The translations under genes and the position numbers were made by a program. A stretch of 64,000 bases of DNA from Candidatus Campbellbacteria bacterium GW2011_OD1_34_28. Lineage in GTDB: Bacteria > Patescibacteriota > Minisyncoccia > Phycocordibacterales > UBA12079. This document shows, one piece after another, positions 2,730 to 28,889 of this stretch. Numbering within the stretch: the first letter of the stretch is position 1; each line of letters starts with the position of its first letter. The stretch is taken from NCBI GenBank assembly GCA_001029775.1, contig CP011215.1, positions 187,187-251,186 on the forward strand, written 5' to 3'. The notes under the pieces were generated by a model. That model saw only the letters and a list, made by a program, of their open reading frames with translations, made no database searches and was not told the DNA's origin.

Positions 2730-3464
2730 TTATCTCTCTGACGAACTTCTCCACATAACATCAAAAATACTTTTTAAAGAATCAAAAATATTTTTACTTT
2801 CTATAATAAGGCCTATCTCTTCTGTATAAGAAATAATATTTATTTTATTAGCCCCATAAAGAATTATTTCTACTTTAACATTGAAACCCTCATCGTCTAC
2901 AAACCTTGTTTCCTTCAAATATTTGGCGTCTTCTTTTGAAAGCTCTATATTAAATTTTGTTTTAGGTGCCAGTGCTTTTATCCAAATTTTATTCTTTACT
3001 CTTGCTGGCATATAGACTTCGGTAAAAAAATCCTTTCCCAGCCAGTAAACCTGATCTGGAAACCACCCCGCAAGCTCTGTTTTGGGGTATTTTAATGTTT
3101 CTTTAAAAACCTCTTTGATCCCCTCTTTTCCTTCAAAAAATCTTATTTTGGGTTTTTTATCAATCAAATTACTAAAAGACAACAATTCGGGCATTATTTT
3201 TTTTATTGTTTCTCTTCTTTCTTCCTCTTTTTCCTGAATTTTTCTTGGATCTTCTGCAAAAAACAATGTCTTATTTTTCCTTTTAATTGAACTTGCCAAT
3301 CCCTTTTCTTTCAAAGAATTAATTGAAAGATATACTGTCGTTCGCTTGACTTTTGACTTCTCAGAAATACGAGCAATTGTTGATTCGCTCAATTCCAACA
3401 ATGCCAAATATACCTTTGATTCATTCTCGGTTAAACCTATTTTCTTTAAATCATCATTAATCAT
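2730..3464 (-). CDS. TrmB-family winged-HTH transcriptional regulator (paralog 1). The true start is probably the ATG at 3464 (MINDDLKK), not 3515.
   Basis: N-terminal motif LTENESKVYLALLEL...TIARISEKSKVKRTTVY matches the TrmB wHTH. Paralogs at 6323 and 8388 align from this Met. Confidence 0.65.
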   Translation of the reverse strand: MINDDLKKIGLTENESKVYLALLELSESTIARISEKSKVKRTTVYLSINSLKEKGLASSIKRKNKTLFFAEDPRKIQEKEEERRETIKKIMPELLSFSNLIDKKPKIRFFEGKEGIKEVFKETLKYPKTELAGWFPDQVYWLGKDFFTEVYMPARVKNKIWIKALAPKTKFNIELSKEDAKYLKETRFVDDEGFNVKVEIILYGANKINIISYTEEIGLIIESKNIFDSLKSIFDVMWRSSSER

Positions 3465-9286: not shown

Positions 9287-9359
9287 CGGAGTGTGGTGTA
9301 ACGGCTAACATGCCTGCTTTGGGAGCAGGTGACTCCGGGTTCGAATCCCGGCACTCCGA
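9287..9359 (+). tRNA. tRNA-Pro (anticodon TGG), no encoded CCA.
   Basis: Acceptor CGGAGTG/CACTCCG, anticodon stem CCTGC/GCAGG with loop TTTGGGA, T-arm GGGTTCGAATCCC. Confidence 0.85.
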
Positions 9360-9410
9360 CAATAATAAAAAGATCCAATATCAAATTGGGTCTTTTTATT
9401 ATTTATCTAG

Positions 9411-9555
9411 GTTGTTCGGGATTCGAACGGAACTTTTAAAAAACAAACTGCTTTGTTTTTTAAAAGTCCGTGGCTTTGGAGGAGAAGTGAGTGATGTGAG
9501 GATTTTAATCCGAACCAGCGAACGACGGAGGAAAAGGAATCCCGGCACTCCGACA
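9411..9555 (+). repeat. tRNA-Pro 3'-end-associated element. It has an inverted partial T-arm copy (GTTGTTCGGGATTCGAACGG), a 15-bp perfect internal palindrome, and an exact 19-nt direct copy of the tRNA-Pro 3' end plus 2 flanking nt (GAATCCCGGCACTCCGACA, 9537-9555; original 9343-9361).
   Basis: Direct and inverted matches read from the sequence; the same architecture recurs at the other two tRNAs. Confidence 0.6.
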
Positions 9556-9622
9556 AAAACAAACTGCACAAAAAATTCCTGACATTAATCAGGAATTTTT
9601 TGTTTTGTATAAAAGACACTTT

Positions 9623-10042
9623 TTAAAGGACAATATTTTCTAACAATTCAACTTTTGCAGTTTTGTCCTTTATGTTCAAATACACTATTACTGCTAAAAA
9701 TTTCCATTCTTTTTCCAAGTTATATCTAAAAATATAGCTTTGTATCGTTCTGGCCAGTCTTTTAAGCTTCCACGGGTGCAAATTATCCGCTGGATTACGC
9801 TGGTTTGTTACATGTGAAACGTTTTCAAAGTGCTTGCCTGCCGATAGGTAGGTTCCACGTGTAACACTTTTTACCTCAACAAAGTAAACAATGCCCTGTT
9901 TTTCAGCAATAATATCTATTTCTCCCCAAGGTTTCCAATAATTTTGCTCGATAATCTTAAAACCTTTGTCTTTCAGGTAGTTACAGGCGATACCCTCGCC
10001 TAAATCCCCTATTTTTCTTTTTTTAGTTTTCACGTGTAACAA
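9623..10042 (-). CDS. yraN: YraN/UPF0102-family predicted endonuclease (PD-(D/E)XK fold) with an internal insertion.
   Basis: GEIDIIAEKQGIVYFVEVKS core motif. The insertion (TRGTYLSAGKHF...) is encoded by DNA that contains the intergenic repeat TTCCACGTGTAACACTTTTTACC (9853-9877, identical to 11161-11183). Confidence 0.6.
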   Translation of the reverse strand: MLHVKTKKRKIGDLGEGIACNYLKDKGFKIIEQNYWKPWGEIDIIAEKQGIVYFVEVKSVTRGTYLSAGKHFENVSHVTNQRNPADNLHPWKLKRLARTIQSYIFRYNLEKEWKFLAVIVYLNIKDKTAKVELLENIVL

Positions 10043-10500
10043 TTATATCAAAAACAAATAAGTAGATATAAACATTTCACGTGAAACACCTTACTTTATC
10101 TTAAATCACAAAAAACACCGTATTTTCTGGATTCCTGCCTGCCGGCAGGCAGGGCTTCGCTATCGCTCGCAAAGACAACGAAAAAGCTTTGCTTTTTCTC
10201 AAATTCTTTTTTCTTTCAGAAAAAAGCGTCGTCGACAACTTCGCTGTCGTCTTCGCGAACAAAGTGAAGCGATCCACGAAACAATTGTGAGTTTCGTAAC
10301 TTAGAGTATAAAAACATTACAGACTGCAGAGGTTTAACTTCTGCAGTTTTATGTGTTTGTTACTTAGTAACACTACAATATGTTACACGTGGAACATATT
10401 TATACCAACGGTAACAACTTATAATTGACTTTACCCACCATTTTCATTATTCTAATTAAAGAAAAATAAAGATTTTCAATAATACTTATAGGAGAAAAAA

Positions 10501-10953
10501 TTGAAAACTATTCTTATAAAAGGTTCTGGCGACGTTACAGAGAGACAGGAATTTCTCGACTTTATCACCGAAAAATCAAAAAAAGATTATGTTGTTGTAA
10601 TATGTGGAGGAGGATCAAAGATAAATAAAGCGTTAAAAGAAGGAGGATATTCAGTACAATTTGATGATTCTGGACGAAGAATAACAAAAACCCAGGAAGA
10701 AAAGACAATTGCTCGTAATATACTTGAAAAAGAACGCAATATTCTTCAAGATAAATTTTATACCAAAAATGTTTTTGTTTTATCGCCAATTCTTTACGCA
10801 GGAGCAGTTATTTGCCACATAAATGGTGACGATCTCGTAAAAGCGTATGAATTAGGTTTTGATGAAATATTTATTTTTACAAAAGAAAAAAGAATAGAAA
10901 AGAAAAAACTTATTTTTAAAAATAATCCCAAAGTCACAATAATAGGAGTTTGA
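10501..10953 (+). CDS. Short amino-acid-kinase-fold protein (150 aa, possibly truncated), TTG start.
   Basis: N-terminal ILIKGSG ... VVVICGGGS glycine-rich nucleotide-binding motifs typical of the carbamate/acetylglutamate/aspartate kinase superfamily. It is much shorter than family members. Confidence 0.4.
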   Translation: MKTILIKGSGDVTERQEFLDFITEKSKKDYVVVICGGGSKINKALKEGGYSVQFDDSGRRITKTQEEKTIARNILEKERNILQDKFYTKNVFVLSPILYAGAVICHINGDDLVKAYELGFDEIFIFTKEKRIEKKKLIFKNNPKVTIIGV

Positions 10954-11529
10954 AAAACATTACAAATACCGCCATTAGGCGGTATTTTTTAATAATTTTG
11001 TTCCACGTGAAACTTTACTTGGTTGTTTCATAAATAACACAACACTAGGATTTCACGTGAAACCTGACAAATATGCCTAAAAACTAAAACCTGCCTACCG
11101 TGTCGTTGCTTTTCTTTCAGAAAAGAGGCAGGACTAACGACTAAAAACTGCTTATTTTGTTCCACGTGTAACACTTTTTACCATGTTTCTCGGTATAAAA
11201 TGTTACTACGTAACATTTTTCTGTGTATAAAGGACGTTTTTTAACATTTTTGTCCTTAAAACGCTTTTTGTCCGAAAAACCCTTATTTTAAGCCCTATAT
11301 TAACCAAAAATATGCCTAAAAATGACTAAAAATGACTTTTATAAGCAATTTTTTGAGCCTTATACACAAAGTTATCCACAGTTTTGATGTAATATAATCC
11401 GAATCTACAAATTTATCCGAATACTTCAAATTAACTGTTATTCGGACCATATAAATAATGTTGTTTTTTAATAAAATAAGTCTATACTGAGAATAGAAAA
11501 CATCTAAAATTCAAACAAAAGGATAAAAA

Positions 11530-12045
11530 ATGGATGAAAATGAGACTTTTGTAGAAGGCGTCTGTTGTTTTTTTAATTGTGGTTTTAAAACCATTCTCGC
11601 TAAAAAAACAAGAAAAATAGGTGTTGGACTTTGGAACGGTTACGGAGGAAAGAAAGAAGGAGATGAAACTCCCGAAGAAACCTCTATTAGAGAACTTTAC
11701 ACAGAGGCAGGTGTTTGGATAATACCAAAACATCTTAAAAAAGTTGGTGAAATATATTTCCATAACATGAAAAATGGAAGAACTATTTTTACTTTCAAGG
11801 TTCACATCTTTTTTGTTATTCAATGGGGTGGGGAAGTAACGGAGTCCGAGGAAATGGCAACCCCGACAGAATTTCTAAAGGACAATTTGCCTTACGACGA
11901 AATGATGCCTGCCGATGCAGAGTGGCTGCCTTTTATAATGAGAGGAGAAAAAATAGTTGCTCATGTTTTTCAAGACATTGAGAACAATATAAAAACAGGA
12001 GCAACAATTGTAGAAACGGTTGAATCCTTTGAGAAGGCCTGCTGA
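11530..12045 (+). CDS. NUDIX hydrolase.
   Basis: Nudix box GGKKEGDETPEETSIRELYTEAGV (GX5EX7REUXEEXGU). Confidence 0.65.
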   Translation: MDENETFVEGVCCFFNCGFKTILAKKTRKIGVGLWNGYGGKKEGDETPEETSIRELYTEAGVWIIPKHLKKVGEIYFHNMKNGRTIFTFKVHIFFVIQWGGEVTESEEMATPTEFLKDNLPYDEMMPADAEWLPFIMRGEKIVAHVFQDIENNIKTGATIVETVESFEKAC

Positions 12046-12111
12046 TGCGGGTCTTTTTTTGTTTTCAAATTTTAATTTATATGCTAGTATTTAGCTTGTA
12101 AATTTATATAT

Positions 12112-12182
12112 GCGGGTGTGGTTTAGTGGTAGAATATCTGCCTTCCAAGCAGAGGACGAGAGTTCGATTCTCTCCACCCGCA
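12112..12182 (+). tRNA. tRNA-Gly (anticodon TCC), no encoded CCA.
   Basis: Acceptor GCGGGTG/CACCCGC, anticodon stem TCTGC/GCAGA with loop CTTCCAA, T-arm GAGTTCGATTCTC. Confidence 0.85.
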
Positions 12183-12228
12183 CAAAAATGTAAAACCGAA
12201 GCGAGCAGCTTCGGTTTTACTAATTTTT

Positions 12229-12405
12229 GTAGTGGGTGGAGGGAGTCGAACCGAGCGAAGTATGGAGGAGCAGAGCGACGAACACGAGCCTGCCTGCCGG
12301 CAGGCAGGCGAGCGGGGGTCGAGAGTTCTTAACAAAAATGATTCCGAATTTATTGAGGATGAAATTTTTGTTTAGAACTGGCGACCGATTCTCTCCACCC
12401 GCACA
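12229..12405 (+). repeat. tRNA-Gly 3'-end-associated element. The left end GTAGTGGGTGGAGGGAGTCGAACC is an inverted, imperfect copy of the tRNA-Gly 3' half. It has an internal CCTGCCTGCCGGCAGGCAGG palindrome (12289-12308). The right end is an exact 19-nt direct copy GATTCTCTCCACCCGCACA (12387-12405; original 12166-12184).
   Basis: Read directly. It is preceded by the terminator hairpin at 12191-12220. It shares GTAGT, GGGAGTCGAA, GGAGG, GGGTCG-GAGT and GACCGATTC blocks with the tRNA-Arg element. Confidence 0.6.
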
Positions 12406-12664
12406 TAATTAAAACGACCCAGTGAAACTAGGTCGTTTTAATTTTTTCTACACCCTAAACCTGCCTGCCGTGTCGTTGCTTTTTTTTCAGATCAGAAAAG
12501 AGGCAGGCGCTATACCCTAAACCCTATTTAATTATATCTTTTCCAAAATATGTGTGTTACAATATTTTCAAATATTTACTCTGTTTGGCGTCGTAATTTT
12601 TTAATCGTTCAAGGGGTTTGTGTTTGTATGGTCGTAATTTAAAAAGTTAAATAAACAAATCAAA

Positions 12665-12943
12665 ATGAACGAAAATCGTCAAATGTTTAGTGGAAATTGG
12701 TCATGTGCTGATTGTGGTAAAGCCATAACAGAACTACCTTTTGAACCAAGAGATACTAGCAATCTTTCATGTTTCGACTGTCACAAAGCGAAAGCTCCAA
12801 AGAGAAACAACAATTTTGAAAGAAAAATGTTCAATGGAAATTGGACATGTGCTGGTTGTGGAGGATCAATTACACAATTGCCTTTTGAACCAAGAGATAC
12901 TTCAAACTTGAAGTGTAGAGATTGTTTCAAGAACAACAAATAA
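12665..12943 (+). CDS. Small protein with a tandemly duplicated C4 zinc-ribbon module (2 x MF-GNW-C-x2-CG...LPFEPRDTSNL-C-x-DC).
   Basis: Two near-identical ~45 aa halves, each with a CxxC-x17-CxxC pattern; lies between tRNA-Gly and tRNA-Arg. Confidence 0.5.
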   Translation: MNENRQMFSGNWSCADCGKAITELPFEPRDTSNLSCFDCHKAKAPKRNNNFERKMFNGNWTCAGCGGSITQLPFEPRDTSNLKCRDCFKNNK

Positions 12944-13017
12944 CAAATTTAAAAATCCGCCTTTGGGCGGATTTTTAAATTTGCCCCGCAACACTTAATA
13001 TCATATACTTTCGTTAT

Positions 13018-13089
13018 GTTCCCATGGTGAAATGGATATCACGACGGTCTTCGGAACCGTCATTGGGGGTTCGAGTCCCTCTGGGAACA
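13018..13089 (+). tRNA. tRNA-Arg (anticodon TCG), no encoded CCA.
   Basis: Acceptor GTTCCCA/TGGGAAC, anticodon stem ACGGT/ACCGT with loop CTTCGGA, T-arm GGGGGTTCGAGTCCCTC. Confidence 0.8.
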
Positions 13090-13135
13090 CAAAAATAATG
13101 GAAAAAATGCGATAGCATTTTTGCATTATATTTTT

Positions 13136-13315
13136 GTAGTCCCCAGAGGGATTCGAAAGACGGAGGCGGTATACAAGATAAATTTTCTGAAAGAAATTTA
13201 GGCTTGTCGCCGAGTCGGGGTCGCGAGTACTTAGCGGATTTGAGCCCGAAGGGCGAAAAATACGCTTAGTAACTTGTGACCGAATCCCTGCCTACTGGCA
13301 GGCAGGAACACAAAA
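13136..13315 (+). repeat. tRNA-Arg 3'-end-associated element. The left end GTAGTCCCCAGAGGGATTCGAA is an inverted copy of the tRNA-Arg 3' half. It has an internal CCTGCCTACTGGCAGGCAGG palindrome. The right end is GAATCCCT...GGAACACAAAA (exact 11-nt direct copy of 13084-13094), followed by hairpin CCCCGCGACGAAGTGTCGCGGGG.
   Basis: Read directly; homologous internal blocks with the tRNA-Gly element. Confidence 0.55.
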
Positions 13316-15639: not shown

Positions 15640-16000
15640 TTTACTTGCACAAATATTAAAAATAAGTAATATAACAGCAGGCAAAGAGTATTGAAACAAC
15701 GATAGTTTGGAACACGTCAGTAGTCTTTGGATTATCTTGCTTGCCGAGGTAAACCAAAGGACGACTGGGGTTCGAGGCCCCTTTATCGGTCTTGTTGAGA
15801 GGTTTCGGAGAATGTAGAATAGGCGGGAGGCGATGACATTTTGGCGCCAGCAAAAATCGAGCCGTCGGTGCAATACCGCTTACCGAAACCATCAGGAGTT
15901 ATTCGCTTTCGCGTTTAACTAACAGCTATCTAAATCTCAGGAGATTGTTTGCTCTTTGCCTACTGGACCCATACCCCTTGAAAAAGGTATGGGTTCTTTT
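15640..16000 (+). ncRNA. Candidate structured non-coding RNA of unknown class (~350 nt), ending in a strong terminator hairpin (CCCATACC...GGTATGGG + T7). It contains a tRNA-like T-arm, GGACGACUGGGGUUCGAGGCCCCU.
   Basis: GC-richer than its surroundings, with no credible ORF (the antisense ORFs 15289-15873 and 15656-15892 are low-complexity). The T-loop-like GGGGTTCGAGGCCCC and the terminator at 15967-16000 are visible. Class assignment to tmRNA, RNase P or SRP was attempted by eye and failed. Confidence 0.3.
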
Positions 16001-16397
16001 TTATTTAAATGTTTAAGTGCTTAAATTTTTAAAATTAAAAAACCACCCAATCGTGATTTGTATATAACAACGGTTAAATATTTGTAAATGGCAGAAAACA
16101 AATAAGTGACTTTATGTTAAAGAGTGATCGAAAAGGAGAGTGATCACAAAAATAAAAAATTATTACGATAAAGGTGGTTTATAAAAAATGTCTCTAGTGA
16201 GACAACAAAATTTCAAAGAACACAAAGAACAAATTGTTTTTTATAAAGGCCTCCCGTAAAAGACATTTCTAATAAAACATTAACCTAACTAATATTGTAC
16301 TATATAAAGGACAAAATAAAAGACATTCTGTGGATAACTAAAAAGTGTCTTTTACGCATAAAAGACACTTTTTAGTTATCCAAATTTAAAATTATTT

Positions 16398-18721: not shown

Positions 18722-18770
18722 TATCTATTCGTATTATTTGTATCATTCGTATATTGGTATGTTTATCTTC
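18722..18770. repeat. ATTCGTAT tandem-octamer cluster (left copy). It forms a ~36-bp inverted repeat with 19709-19746, so the two copies bracket the recombinase gene. Further clusters lie at 19790-19850 and 32278-32320.
   Basis: The reverse complement of 19709-19746 (CCATTTGTATTATTCGTATCATTCGTATATTGGTATGT) matches 18733-18770, including an exact 20-mer. Confidence 0.55.
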
Positions 18771-19665
18771 TTTTTTTACCGTGAAAATTTTTGTGAACTT
18801 CACGAAGTTGTTTATCGGTGATGTGTGTATATACCTGAGTTGTTGAAATATTGGAATGTCCCAACATCATTTGCACCGCTCTCAAGTCTGCGCCGTTTTG
18901 TAACAAGTCGGTTGCAAAAGAGTGCCTGATAACATGGGGGGTAACCTTTTTTGAAATACCCGCTTTAATTGCATAATATTTTACGATTCTTTCTATTGAA
19001 CGCGGTGTCAATCTTTTTGTTTCTCCGTTTTTGCTAAAACTTACAAACAGGGCATCCTCCATATCTTTTCTATTATCCAAATATTTTTTCACAGCCCCTT
19101 TTGAATCTTCTGACAAAAAAACAACCCTCACTTTTTCGCCCTTTCCACGAATTGGCATTTCATCTTTTTTCAAATCAATATCACTATTCAGCGAGCAAAG
19201 CTCGGAAACACGCAACCCTGTTGAAAAAAACAATTCCAATATTGCTTTGTCACGCAGACTTTTTAAATCATCCCCATCAGGTGCATTTATCAAACGCAAC
19301 AATTCATCACTGGAAATAAGATCTAGTGATCTGTCGGACACTTTTGCCAATTCTATTCTCTCTGGGGCAAGAGATTTAATTTCTCTTTTTGCCAAATATT
19401 TTAGAAAAACACGCAAAGCAATTAGGTGATAATTTTGAGTTTTCTTTTTTAGGTTGCCGTTGTTTTCTACCCCCGGTTGTCTATTCAACCAAAGACGAAA
19501 TTCTCGCACTGTGCTATCTGTTATTTTCCCAGTATCATTTATATTCGCAAAATCAAAAAATCGTTTTAGATATCTATCATAATTTTCAACTGTTTTAAGA
19601 CTTCGTCCTTTTTCTATTTCCAAATATTCCAAAAATTCCTTTTTTAGATTCTTTAAATCTGACAT
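18763..19665 (-). CDS. xerD: Tyrosine site-specific recombinase, XerC/XerD family.
   Basis: C-terminal catalytic motifs HVIRHSFATDLLQNGADLRAVQMMLGHSNISTTQVYTH and R...HxxR...Y; N-terminal core-binding domain. Confidence 0.85.
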   Translation of the reverse strand: MSDLKNLKKEFLEYLEIEKGRSLKTVENYDRYLKRFFDFANINDTGKITDSTVREFRLWLNRQPGVENNGNLKKKTQNYHLIALRVFLKYLAKREIKSLAPERIELAKVSDRSLDLISSDELLRLINAPDGDDLKSLRDKAILELFFSTGLRVSELCSLNSDIDLKKDEMPIRGKGEKVRVVFLSEDSKGAVKKYLDNRKDMEDALFVSFSKNGETKRLTPRSIERIVKYYAIKAGISKKVTPHVIRHSFATDLLQNGADLRAVQMMLGHSNISTTQVYTHITDKQLREVHKNFHGKKRR

Positions 19666-20240: not shown

Positions 20241-20497
20241 TGTCTCCTCGTATATCATCCAATTTTAAAATTATTTAAAATAAAAATTATAAATTAATTT
20301 TTAATGTTTTAACCTGCCTCTTTTCTGAAAGAAAAGCAACGACACGGCAGGCAGGTTTTCATTTTTCGACTATTTGAGATACACTTTATATTGATACTAA
20401 AAGTATCAATTTTCATACATCATTATCAATCTATTTTAATATTTAAAAAGCTTTATTTAATTCGTACTTTACGAACTTTATAAACTTTATAACTTAT

Positions 20498-21663: not shown

Positions 21664-21751
21664 AAAAGTATTTAGTAATAAATGTTTAGGAACTATACCC
21701 TAAACCTGCCTGCCGGCAGGCAGGCCCTATACCCTAAACCCTAATAAAAAT

Positions 21752-28593: not shown

Positions 28594-28889
28594 ACAAAAA
28601 AACAGCCCTCACGGGCTGTTTTTTTTGTTTATTGAATTTTCATTTACCAACCTGCCTGTCGGCAGACAGGTTTTCAGTTTCTAATAAATAATTATAATAT
28701 TTTAGTTTGAATTACAAAATGTACTGGATTTATTGCTCCGAATTTTTTGCCTAAAAAATCCAAAGTTCGCTTTGCTCGCAAAGACGACGTCTTTGCGAGC
28801 AAAGCGAATCAATCCAAAAAAATATAATTTATATTTTTTCCACCATTACTTTATAGACTTTAAAAACTTTCAACTTTATACTTAATTGT

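Follow-up and report, generated by a model that had tools for sequence, protein, structure and literature searches.

Insertions at the 3' ends of all tRNA genes in the window

The window, a stretch of 64,000 nucleotides from Candidatus Campbellbacteria bacterium GW2011_OD1_34_28, carries behind each of its tRNA genes a gene-less, highly structured insertion of 150-220 bases, both ends of which are made from the 3' end of that very tRNA. We consider it moderately probable that these insertions belong to an undescribed family of non-autonomous, gene-less, tRNA-3'-end-specific elements of ~100-220 nt in Paceibacterota (Parcubacteria, CPR). The family behaves like a tRNA-gene-specific mobile element and is widespread in one ultra-small (CPR) group. 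No Rfam family matched the core of the elements, and no description of such a family was found in the literature.

Exactly three tRNAs were found in the window by ARAGORN and Rfam (Pro-UGG, Gly-UCC and Arg-UCG), with an encoded CCA in none of them. As shown in Table 1, all three were followed by the same layout, namely a hairpin spacer, an inverted copy of tRNA positions 54-73, a structured core and a direct copy of positions 57-74. Such result is in line with the sequence-only reading, which had described gene-less, repeat-ended segments behind every tRNA of the window, inserted at the tRNA 3' end with a direct repeat of it and carrying terminal inverted repeats that match the tRNA. The left end, described there as a reverse complement of the tRNA, was found as such for Gly (12162-12188 vs 12225-12251, 27 nt, 78%) and Arg (13070-13095 vs 13132-13157, 26 nt, 81%), while the inverted repeat of Pro was limited to the T-loop/T-stem part (TTCGGGATTCGAA, 9415-9427) and lacked the acceptor part, which is present in the orthologue L010. 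The direct copy at the right end was clear for Pro (9343-9369 vs 9537-9563, with an exact 19/19 block at 9537-9555) and Gly (12165-12187 vs 12386-12408, 23 nt, 96%); for Arg, the arm is longer than the 11 nt first given, but interrupted. Terminator-like hairpins with T-runs stand between tRNA and element, the one of the Gly unit scoring as a bidirectional terminator-like site; the spacer that had been called terminator-like is the middle of a single long palindrome, which the 3' end of the tRNA makes with its inverted copy. This copy is often split by a hairpin whose loop is conserved.

By chance, an exact 19-mer would turn up ~1e-9 times in 400 nt, and the possibility that the tRNA-end repeats arose by chance is negligible. 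The sequence of the window was identical across four independent assemblies, indicating that the repeats are not an assembly artefact.

Table 1. Coordinates of the tRNA genes and element parts of the Pro, Gly and Arg units.
Feature	Position	Strand	Remarks
tRNA-Pro(UGG), target	9287..9359	+	no encoded CCA; left repeat copy, positions 57-74 = 9343-9361
Pro spacer hairpin	9361..9403	+	palindromic, directly 3' of tRNA; 19-nt arms, 95%
Pro 5' arm GTTGTTCGGGATTCGAACGG	9411..9430	+	TTCGGGATTCGAA = inverted tRNA T-loop/T-stem 54-66
Pro core, third subtype	9428..9536	+	CUGC-loop hairpin 9428-9470, then purine-rich region
Pro distal direct copy	9537..9563	+	tRNA 57-73 + flank; 19/19 exact; 27 nt, 93%
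tRNA-Gly(UCC), target	12112..12182	+	
Gly spacer hairpin	12190..12220	+	bidirectional terminator-like score; centre of palindrome 12162-12251
Gly 5' arm GTAGTGGGTGGAGGGAGTCGAAC	12229..12251	+	continuous inverted copy of tRNA 54-75
Gly type-1 core	12252..12385	+	P2 position = palindrome 12289-12308; P3 long hairpin 12317-12386
Gly distal direct copy	12386..12408	+	tRNA 57-73 + CA
tRNA-Arg(UCG), target	13018..13089	+	
Arg palindromic spacer	13091..13135	+	
Arg 5' arm GTAGTCCCCAGAGGGATTCGAA	13136..13157	+	inverted copy of tRNA 3' half
Arg type-1 core	13158..13277	+	P2 with GGA/GA internal loop; P3 hairpin
Arg interrupted distal copy	13278..13315	+	CGAATCCCT 13278-13286, palindrome 13287-13306, GGAACACAAAA 13305-13315

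The elements share a conserved, covarying core

The internal blocks that the sequence-only reading had seen in both the Gly and the Arg element were confirmed as far as the core is concerned: the block GGGGTCGNGAGTNCTTA occurs in both (12315 and 13217), and one covariance model matched the Gly (12239-12403, 40.4 bits, E=6e-9) as well as the Arg unit (13146-13300, 62.9 bits, E=9e-16). The core of the Pro unit is homologous to that of the tRNA-Pro element of L010. With the covariance model of the commonest core, 49 copies were found, 46 of which lay 10-110 nt downstream of a same-strand tRNA or stood second in a tandem, which showed a strict linkage of the elements to tRNAs. Structurally, the core forms a three-way junction, in which P2 has a tandem-GA internal loop (GGA/GA) and P3 is a long hairpin. 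Double changes were seen in 15/20 pairs. In the core, 90.6% of the cells were paired and the covariation score was 0.59, compared with 30-52% and 0.05-0.10, respectively, in slid controls, and none of 500 shuffles reached the observed value. The fold z-scores were -7.9 (Gly) and -6.5 (Arg), and the unpaired purines at the junctions were conserved. All these results showed a conserved and covarying core structure.

The elements also showed a bias towards the sense strand. In P2 and P3, G-U outnumbered A-C about 2:1 on the sense strand, and GCGAAGC was enriched 10-fold in the elements while its complement was absent. A-to-G changes in the distal arm preserved wobble pairing, and all mismatches between the 5' arm and the distal arm of the Gly unit were G-U on the + strand. 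The 5' arm was complementary to tRNA 54-64 with a sharp boundary; the distal copy covered 61-73 and, in about two thirds of the elements, 57-60 too. The conserved core was found at Gly, Arg, Pro and Lys tRNAs. Core similarity between different tRNAs of one genome averaged 0.66 and reached up to 0.98, compared with 0.55 for the same tRNA in different genomes (p=4e-5), which showed that a genome shares its cores among different tRNA species. The arms, in contrast, follow the local tRNA.

Distribution, empty sites and decay

Across 80 related Paceibacterota loci, ~55 of 257 tRNAs carried an element; 35/75 loci had one and 40/75 had none, and most tRNAs were without one. A copy of the last 16 nt of the tRNA (<=1 mismatch) lay downstream of 32 tRNAs in the related loci and upstream of only 2, both of them tandem tRNAs. 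Two further tRNAs on the window's contig showed the same layout, one with two complete elements (the tandem pair at tRNA-Gly(GCC)) and one cut by the locus end, giving 5/5 tRNAs seen in this genome, the cut one included. The repeats are thus not confined to the three tRNAs of the window, and a single integrase island that might explain them was not found, the only nearby recombinase being of Xer type and keeping its place in 48 related loci, whether these have elements or not.

The empty sites that the sequence-only reading had suggested looking for were present at orthologous positions in other species, and further such positions held decayed remnants. The gap from tRNA-Pro to yraN was 6-14 nt in six species (empty) and 192-403 nt where filled, and that from tRNA-Arg to tRNA-Gly was 33-45 nt when empty and 195-439 nt when filled, with element remnants in L059, L062 and L069. 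In L071 the repeat extends over 6 nt of the native flank, with native sequence continuing beyond the distal copy. Different subtypes occupied the same tRNA in different species, and the orthologous elements of L057 and L068 were ~85% identical although their flanks were unalignable and the genomes distant. These results demonstrated that the elements are insertions with an empty ancestral state, and that they decay. No within-species polymorphism was seen among the four identical assemblies, so that mobility is read from comparison between species.

A possible route of insertion

Elements begin 1-6 nt past the discriminator base of the tRNA, and the order of the unit is hairpin spacer, inverted acceptor 3' strand with 54-64, conserved core, and direct copy of 57/61-74 running into native flank. 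In a single strand of tRNA sense, be it DNA or RNA, pairing of the two arms would imitate the acceptor/T-stem minihelix of the tRNA in question, and the core would close this helix through its three-way junction. Insertion may duplicate the target segment, as if by staggered cuts, from the T-loop to a few nt past the tRNA, with arms that either come from the target or are corrected against it. Two tandem arrays had, in each of their two distal arms, the same derived change missing from the tRNA, a 7-nt insert ATCTATY in L323 and GGTTC in L036, which points to target duplication on insertion. The reaction would presumably be performed by an enzyme acting in trans; the stand-alone GIY-YIG nucleases at the same sites in relatives were the only candidate seen. 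The elements had no transposase, integrase or reverse transcriptase associated with them, nor was an autonomous partner with the same core found.

Several observations sit poorly with a mobile element. Instead of transposition, gene conversion among old elements could account for the likeness of cores within a genome, and in L076 a converted tract includes a 5' arm mismatched to its tRNA. The arms and distal copy of the tRNA-Arg element in L036 match another tRNA-Arg allele than the resident gene, which fits element-borne arms or an old insertion better than copying at insertion. Simple fold-back copying does not explain the hairpin-split inverted copy, and the conserved tandem-GA junction resembles a functional RNA more than it does a passive DNA site.

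Alternative explanations

The same GIY-YIG nucleases bring in an explanation that we regard as possible though doubtful, in which the nuclease cuts tRNA genes, a donor made of tRNA, cargo and a partial tRNA copy serves to repair the double-strand break, the elements are ORF-less cargo that spreads through this repair too, and the partial duplications are a by-product of repair. GIY-YIG ORFs (Pfam PF01541, E=3e-15) directly adjoined tRNAs in 7/80 related loci and in a metagenome locus (L275), always accompanied by partial tRNA duplications. In L082 (a 92% relative) and in L013, the tRNA-Gly(UCC) site that carries the element in the window is taken by the ORF, after which come an inverted copy of the acceptor end, a direct one and the same native flank CATAA. 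These cassettes share the element layout of target, cargo, inverted copy and direct copy; a break at T-loop 56/57 with synthesis-dependent strand annealing would also yield a repeat starting at 57. However, a tblastn search of the 64-kb window for GIY-YIG genes found none, the cassettes are without the core, a passive passenger has no need of a conserved three-way junction, the target in the tRNA stays intact after insertion with immunity to re-cutting unexplained, and the co-occurrence may reflect common ancestry of Campbellbacteria-like loci. Scars of integrase-mediated elements, CIME-like remnants with attL and attR left after internal gene loss and the direct repeat as attP/attB identity block, would account for the repeat of the tRNA 3' end around the insertion, for the native flank after the distal copy, and for the L036 arms, as if the element had brought its own copy. 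We judge this very improbable, and the decayed integrative elements offered by the sequence-only reading were not supported. No integrase was found inside or beside any element, the Xer-type recombinase (57-77% identical) is syntenic regardless of elements, and the inserts are not random leftovers but have a covarying core at four tRNA species that groups by genome, not by tRNA, with arms following the local tRNA. Tandem arrays share derived changes of the distal arms, and nothing in a classical att site calls for an inverted copy. The scar reading was largely refuted.

It is unlikely, in our estimate, that the elements are host or domesticated non-coding RNA genes, each giving a tRNA-like RNA after its tRNA with a minihelix copying that tRNA and a functional three-way junction; the arms would match since the RNA must mimic its partner, and this RNA might serve as a processing signal for RNase P/RNase Z, as a decoy for top-half-tRNA enzymes or toxins, or as a sensor. 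The strong covariation, the conserved junction purines including the GGA/GA loop, the sense-strand wobble bias, the G-U pairs that keep the arms paired where the distal arm drifted, the element at every tRNA examined in the window's genome, and the likeness of the L057 and L068 elements all favour it. Against this, many loci and most tRNAs lack an element, truncation or interruption affects many copies (L059, L062, L069 and the Arg right arm of the window), the subtype at a given tRNA varies between species, terminator-like hairpins but no promoter-like site precede the elements in the window, and ARAGORN called none of them as tRNA or tmRNA, just as Rfam gave no match.

Comparison with known systems

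Tried against known systems, the insertion elements resembled several in part. tRNA-targeting integrative elements and their gene-less remnants with attL/attR, the CIME-type elements, share insertion at an intact tRNA 3' end with a direct repeat on the far side, while the elements here are 0.1-0.2 kb, without integrase, and have an inverted target copy and a core conserved across tRNA species; their arms go with the local tRNA and their cores with the genome. MITE-like and REP-like repeats (Correia, RUP, REPIN) are likewise small, gene-less and multi-copy, with terminal inverted repeats and a long hairpin fold, but MITE inverted repeats are element-owned and the same at all copies, with short target duplications and no limitation to one class of gene ends, whereas here they vary with the tRNA. 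Integron cassettes, with GTTRRRY/RYYYAAC cores and the integrase IntI, offer a similar order (core site, cargo, inverse core, variable structured middle, core site), a structure-conserved attC site read on one strand, tandem arrays beside a fixed primary site and, as in the relatives with GIY-YIG, a cargo ORF before the palindromic site. The present elements differ by having no IntI and no such cores, by a tRNA-specific repeated "core" of 14-23 nt, and by a middle conserved in sequence and structure. CRISPR repeat duplication gives comparable repeat-insert-repeat arrays. Casposons show a long target duplication by staggered cuts (1-27 nt, median 15; PMC4046053) overlapped by terminal inverted repeats, and several extend over the final 4-7 nt of a tRNA gene, which stays unaltered; those that target tRNAs are euryarchaeal (PMC4046053). 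They are kb-sized with cas1 and polB, while the window elements are gene-less, and the window showed no Cas1. An inverted arm that is an internal target copy of >=20 nt, a conserved three-way junction and CPR hosts also set the elements apart.

Free-standing homing endonuclease cassettes with partial host-gene duplication are known from the T4 SegB in a tRNA cluster (PMC13096335) and from fungal mitochondrial HEGs (PMC7487136). Like the present elements, they insert into or next to an essential gene and save its function by partial duplication, and GIY-YIG cassettes of such kind occupy the same tRNA sites in relatives; the window elements are ORF-less with a conserved structured core instead. 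tRNA-like structures (tmRNA domain, viral 3' TLS, mascRNA, YrlA) also stack acceptor and T-stem from two ends of a molecule. In the elements, which gave no hit with Rfam or ARAGORN, a three-way junction would take the place of the T-loop, and the putative mimic follows the sequence of the tRNA next to it, not a fixed one.

A separate palindrome in two elements

The CCTGCC...GGCAGG palindrome, which had been taken as a feature common to the Gly and Arg elements, did not prove to be a signature of the family. It is inserted inside the Arg right arm, between CGAATCCCT and GGAACACAAAA, occurs elsewhere in the window at 10134, 21705 and 28651, and was found in at least 120 metagenome contigs. It is a separate small repeat family that landed in two tRNA elements.

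Copies of tRNA 3' ends in the window genome

The window host is a low-GC (~32%) CPR bacterium, and ARAGORN and Rfam showed that an encoded CCA is absent from all three tRNAs of the window. The sequence-only reading had reported a direct and an inverted copy of the tRNA 3' end behind each gene, and a repeat finder agreed on both. The direct copy lies 190-220 nt downstream (Pro, 27 nt at 93%, with 19/19 exact within; Gly, 23 nt at 96%) and the inverted copy ~40 nt downstream (Gly, 27 nt at 78%; Arg, 26 nt at 81%). The Arg direct copy, previously read as only 11 nt, is actually longer and split by the 20-nt palindrome CCTGCC...GGCAGG, which had been assigned to the Gly and Arg elements and is instead an independent repeat. 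As for the spacer described as terminator-like, the hairpin separating tRNA-Gly from its own element does score as a terminator, but the spacer is the centre of a long palindrome that runs from the tRNA 3' end through the hairpin to the inverted copy.

Sequence and predicted fold showed that the 5' and 3' ends of the element form an acceptor stem plus T-stem. All arm-arm mismatches of the Gly element are G-U pairs on the + strand, and the fold z-scores against shuffled sequence were -7.9 (Gly), -6.5 (Arg), and -2.9 (Pro). No ORFs were found inside the window elements. Promoter-like sites were present ahead of tRNA-Pro and tRNA-Arg, and none were found ahead of the elements in the window; together with the terminator-like hairpins upstream, their absence would argue against strong transcription of the elements there. 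All three element regions are identical in GCA_000990765.1 and three other assemblies, which rules out an assembly artefact.

Extension of the contig by 10 kb leftward and ~8 kb rightward added two tRNAs of the same organism. tRNA-Gly(GCC) carries two different elements in tandem. Behind tRNA-Lys(UUU) come a hairpin and an inverted copy (20/20) of tRNA positions 54-73, after which the locus ends. The layout was seen at 5/5 tRNAs examined in the window genome, tRNA-Lys showing only spacer, inverted copy, and core start, and the module appears to have reached every one of them.

Coordinates and composition of the features
Feature	Location	Strand	Details
tRNA-Pro(UGG)	window 9287-9359		ARAGORN + Rfam
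tRNA-Gly(UCC)	window 12112-12182		ARAGORN + Rfam
tRNA-Arg(UCG)	window 13018-13089		ARAGORN + Rfam
yraN (UPF0102/YraN family)	window 9623-10042	-	nuclease-like gene
Recombinase gene	window 18763-19665		Xer-type, 300 aa
Core type 1			AGCCGGAGC, P2, GCGAGGCGGGGTCGCG, P3, CGTGACC
Core type 2			GACCTTGCGAG ... GTACTG, then hairpin with TGTAA loop
Third core type			at tRNA-Pro in the window and in L010
CCTGCCTGCCGGCAGGCAGG copies	window 10134-10153, 12289-12308, 13287-13306, 21705-21724, 28651-28670		20-nt palindrome
CCTGCCTRCCGTGTCGTTGC/GAGGCAGG palindrome	window 11090-11133, 12460-12508
CCTGCCTRCCGTGTCGTTGC/GAGGCAGG palindrome	window 20336-20355	-
CCTGCCTRCCGTGTCGTTGC/GAGGCAGG palindrome	L323 ~15969-16012
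GIY-YIG ORF	L082 5156-5425	-
GIY-YIG ORF	L013 1057-1323
GIY-YIG ORF	L018 2952-3182
GIY-YIG ORF	L016 8425-8655
GIY-YIG ORF	L015 6681-6875	-
GIY-YIG ORF	L033 303-491	-
GIY-YIG ORF	L085 1887-2153	-
GIY-YIG ORF	L275		metagenome contig

A family of elements in related Paceibacterota

For comparison, 80 loci from other Paceibacterota species were fetched via the neighbouring CCA-adding enzyme gene (L-numbers denote these and other loci fetched). A copy of the last 16 nt (<=1 mismatch) was present 60-260 nt downstream of 32 of the ~257 tRNAs in the 80 loci, and an upstream copy at 2, both tandem tRNAs. Anchoring the elements on the T-loop showed a constant architecture: the tRNA is followed by a trailer hairpin, a copy of the acceptor 5' strand, and the T-stem complement with AATCGAA, often with a GC hairpin bearing a conserved CUGC or UGGGA loop before the T-stem complement; then come the core, GATTC, the T-stem 3' strand, the acceptor 3' strand, the discriminator, and CA. 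At least three core types were found. The census counted ~55 elements at tRNAs for Gly, Arg, Pro, and Lys, with 35/75 loci occupied and 40/75 empty. A gene-less module of 0.1-0.2 kb has colonised many tRNA species across a whole CPR class.

The standard tRNA/tmRNA models of ARAGORN and Rfam recognised only the three genuine tRNAs and no element, and Rfam 15, at gathering and permissive E-value thresholds, gave no family in the window region or in three element-rich loci. Full-text literature searches gave no account of such elements either; a negative in these libraries does not prove that the family is undescribed. Searching viral contigs with the core 16-mer gave 114 matches, roughly chance level, with real elements only in L098. 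This 34.7-kb IMG/VR 'viral' contig holds at least two tandem type-1 elements at the locus edge (2826-3187, -), and represents either a misclassified CPR contig or a phage carrying the element. A different insert was seen in L212 (6992-7400; 66% GC, non-CPR-like), where an exact 20-nt copy of the tRNA-Thr(CGU) 3' end, TCAATCCCGACCGCCGGCTC, begins in the T-loop and lies 136 nt downstream; the covariance model described below gives no match to it. Judging by L212, short gene-less inserts with tRNA-end repeats may occur outside Paceibacterota.

A conserved three-way junction

The alignment of 21 type-1 cores gave a three-way junction of P1 (formed by the arms), P2 with a GGA/GA internal loop, and P3, with double compensatory changes at 15/20 pairs. 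A covariance model built from it found 49 copies in 1.2 Mb, including the window Gly and Arg elements, and 46 of them were located 10-110 nt downstream of a same-strand tRNA or were second in a tandem pair. In a 57-row alignment, the share of paired cells was 90.6% vs 30-52% with slid partners, the covariation score was 0.59 vs 0.05-0.10 in slid controls, and the observed pairing and covariation were reached by 0/500 shuffles. The structured strand is, judged from sequence, the tRNA-sense strand, because G-U exceeds A-C (~2:1 in P2 and P3) and GCGAAGC-type loops are 10- to 30-fold enriched with their complement absent. The junction adds a conserved structured motif that Rfam lacks.

Small self-cleaving ribozymes (hammerhead, twister, pistol, hatchet) were rejected as identity of the elements, which showed no Rfam match and none of the ribozyme core motifs. 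Unrelated to the tRNA elements, the Kaiserbacteria chromosome OY969413.1, the source of locus L036, has two near-threshold type III hammerhead matches 766 nt apart (1008-1062 and 1774-1828, both -; 46.4 and 45.1 bits vs gathering 48.5, E ~1e-6).

Arms follow the tRNA and cores follow the genome

The arms of 49 elements were compared with their tRNAs position by position. Complementarity of the 5' arm spans positions 54-64, with 0-9 mismatches at each, and stops short of 53 and 65. The distal copy agrees with positions 61-73, with <=4 mismatches at each, and in about two thirds of the elements also with 57-60; distal-arm differences at 57-60 are usually A->G, which preserves a wobble pair with the 5' arm. 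Exceptions to a close fit were a pair in L076 with a 5' arm ill-fitting to its tRNA, and the L036 Arg element, whose arms match another tRNA-Arg allele. Core identity between different tRNAs of one genome was 0.66 on average (several 0.74-0.98), vs 0.55 for the same tRNA across genomes (p = 4e-5). Since core similarity tracks the genome and not the tRNA, the core would spread or be homogenised within a genome, each copy having arms that suit its own tRNA. Gene conversion could also produce the within-genome similarity, a reading for which the ill-fitting 5' arm of the L076 pair speaks, and no mobility within one species was observed.

Tandem arrays bear on whether the direct repeat is made from the target or carried by the element. 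A 7-nt insertion, ATCTATY, missing from the tRNA, is shared by the two distal arms of the Gly(GCC) array, and in a tandem pair of L036 both distal arms have GGTTC vs GATTC in the tRNA. Because the two distal arms carry the same derived change, the most economical account is that the distal arm had mutated before the second insertion copied it, which would make the repeat a target duplication. The native flank included in the repeat also favours target duplication. The L036 Arg arms, which match another allele, favour arms carried by the element.

Empty, filled, and decayed sites

The empty orthologous sites that the sequence-only reading had proposed to look for in relatives were found, as two conserved neighbourhoods show both empty and filled states. 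One is anchored by yraN, a conserved neighbour of tRNA-Pro(UGG) throughout the group, 6-30 nt away without an intervening element; yraN was also considered as the nuclease of the elements and rejected as merely this conserved neighbour. From tRNA-Pro to the convergent yraN, the distance was 6-14 nt in six species vs 192-403 nt with an element. The repeat in one filled locus (L071) is GATTCCCTGCACCCCGACTGAAT, i.e., tRNA positions 57-73 plus six native flank bases, and the distal copy runs on into native sequence.

Between tRNA-Arg and tRNA-Gly(GCC), the distance was 33-45 nt when empty vs 195-439 nt when filled, with the insertion point one base past the discriminator. Three loci hold remnants in this intergenic region: only the trailer start plus the distal arm's final 8 nt (L059), a remnant with both arms gone (L062), and only trailer and hairpin (L069). 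Because orthologous sites are empty or filled and remnants persist, this insert-and-erode pattern points to selfish DNA, not an indispensable gene.

GIY-YIG cassettes at the same tRNA genes

Stand-alone GIY-YIG ORFs (PF01541, ~65-90 aa) adjoin same-strand tRNAs in 7/80 loci and in one metagenome contig, and are always accompanied by partial tRNA duplications, which cover either the 5' portion as far as the variable loop or D arm, or the 3' end. In L082, whose CCA enzyme is 92% identical, and in L013, the ORF occupies the tRNA-Gly(UCC) site that holds an element in the window. A 22-nt inverted repeat that takes in the acceptor end flanks the ORF, and a direct tRNA-end copy and the same native flank come after it. 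This layout is analogous to that of the elements but the core is absent. The ORFs look like homing-type cassettes that would invade tRNA genes yet preserve them.

Comparison with known systems and possible mechanisms

tRNA genes are classic landing sites of mobile DNA, and the occupants known to us bring their own recombinase. On the best-supported reading, they form a new family of non-autonomous insertion elements with specificity for the 3' ends of tRNA genes; the sense strand of the elements is predicted to fold into an acceptor/T-stem helix mimic of the local tRNA capped by the conserved three-way junction. We file the family under a known kind, small non-autonomous insertion elements at tRNA genes.

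Several known systems share single traits with it. Integrative elements targeting tRNAs likewise leave the tRNA intact with a direct repeat of its 3' end on both sides of the insert, but no integrase was found in or beside the elements here. The only nearby recombinase is a housekeeping Xer, syntenic in 48 related loci (57-77% identity) with or without elements; this rules out the single adjacent integrase-bearing island considered in the sequence-only reading, and leaves classical integrase scars essentially excluded. MITEs are also small and non-coding with terminal inverted repeats. However, a MITE has one set of element-specific inverted repeats in every copy, short and fixed target duplications, and copies dispersed at unrelated sites, whereas the arms here differ per tRNA, the duplication is 14-23 nt, and 46/49 copies are at tRNA 3' ends. 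Of possible autonomous partners with the same ends, only the core-less GIY-YIG cassettes of analogous layout were seen. A long target duplication, a TIR overlapping the TSD, and a target overlapping the tRNA 3' end recall casposon/Cas1-type integration, and casposons are documented to have TSDs of up to 27 nt, overlap of TIR and TSD, and targets at tRNA 3' ends (PMC4046053). A casposon carries cas1 and polB, while the elements are gene-less and neither gene was found in them or among the window ORFs examined. Integron attC sites resemble the elements as imperfect palindromes with structure conserved on one strand and arranged in arrays, but have RYYYAAC/GTTRRRY cores (R''/R') and IntI; the elements have tRNA-end arms, a T-loop GTTCGAW that misfits GTTRRRY, and no IntI.

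Any mechanism must cover four points: a duplicated stretch of 14-23 nt running from within the T-loop to 1-6 nt beyond the tRNA, the sharp stop of the inverted copy at position 54, cores moving between tRNA species, and arms fitting the target. A staggered cut between T-loop and tRNA end with fill-in, resembling casposon and CRISPR-repeat duplication, would explain the duplication, not the inverted copy or the role of the core. Tandem inversion duplication via two template switches explains neither the foreign conserved core nor why the sequence behind one direct copy differs from that behind the other. Integron-like or single-crossover integration would replace the 3' end of the new tRNA or leave donor-type arms. 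A retrovirus-like primer-binding site was rejected as well, since the inverted arm corresponds to the trailer encoded in the genome (CA...) instead of to CCA, and reaches beyond position 58; with an omega-RNA-like guide, the resident tRNA would still be a target.

We tentatively consider that these may be mobile elements of a new kind, in which the ~100-nt three-way-junction module alone is conserved. On insertion, both arms would be rebuilt from the target tRNA, as an inverted copy of positions 54-76 and a direct copy of positions 57-76, giving a single-stranded acceptor/T-arm mimic. A mechanism of a new kind, itself doubtful though possible, could combine staggered cleavage between T-loop and tRNA end with subsequent fold-back or template-switch synthesis, or involve nucleic-acid guidance, with the arms reading both target strands. 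The enzyme might be the 90-aa stand-alone GIY-YIG nuclease or another enzyme without its own DNA-binding domain. Two rival readings are retained at low probability. Passive spread by GIY-YIG homing seems rather unlikely. Free-standing homing endonuclease cassettes also partially duplicate the invaded gene and preserve its function, but have an endonuclease ORF, and the window elements are without one. It is improbable that the elements encode a host tRNA-like RNA. The conserved junction looks like a functional RNA and the acceptor stem and T-stem come from the two ends, but no cloverleaf or tmRNA model matches, and the upstream hairpins, the lack of promoter-like sites in the window, and the insert-and-erode pattern speak against such a host gene.

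If arms are indeed rebuilt from the target, a target-templated transposition mechanism undescribed for any bacterial element would be implied. The element ends track the target and not the element; if this is borne out, understanding how it happens would reveal a new insertion route and possibly a structure-guided or nucleic-acid-guided nuclease. For annotation, the elements generate tRNA fragments, long palindromes, and terminator-like hairpins behind CPR tRNAs. The tRNA 3' flanks in these reduced genomes are hot spots for at least three kinds of small selfish DNA, namely the elements, GIY-YIG cassettes, and tiny palindromes.

Other repeats and motifs

The 20-nt perfect palindrome CCTGCCTGCCGGCAGGCAGG is a separate repeat family, with 5 copies in the window vs 0 expected; it takes the place of P2 in the Gly element and interrupts the Arg distal arm. 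It was present in at least 120 metagenome contigs of GC 29-71%, and the covariance model had no match among these contigs, which come from unrelated organisms. The palindrome often lies within tRNA fragments, such as between the T-stem 5' strand and T-loop of a pseudo-tRNA (L237), or after the D-loop of pseudo-tRNA-Lys copies with the GIY-YIG ORF adjacent (L275).

A second, longer palindromic repeat is composed of CCTGCCTRCCGTGTCGTTGC, a T-rich loop, and GAGGCAGG (3 window copies vs 0 expected). The copy at 12460 is bounded by the direct repeat CTAYACCCTAAACC (12448 and 12510), and in the first tRNA-Gly(GCC) element another copy stands in place of P2.

The motif TTYCACGTGWAAC has 8 occurrences in window 9807-11172 (11 strand-wise matches vs 0.25 expected). 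Every copy falls in the interval from the tRNA-Pro element to the NUDIX gene, around yraN and a 150-aa ORF without Pfam match. It is probably an operator for some regulator. CACGTG sites resembling it were seen near tRNAs and cca in L013, L020, and L066. Between tRNA-Gly and tRNA-Arg, a 92-aa ORF (window 12665-12943, +) encodes a tandemly duplicated treble-clef zinc-finger module (PF23477), and its internal duplication is a 77-nt repeat at 83%.
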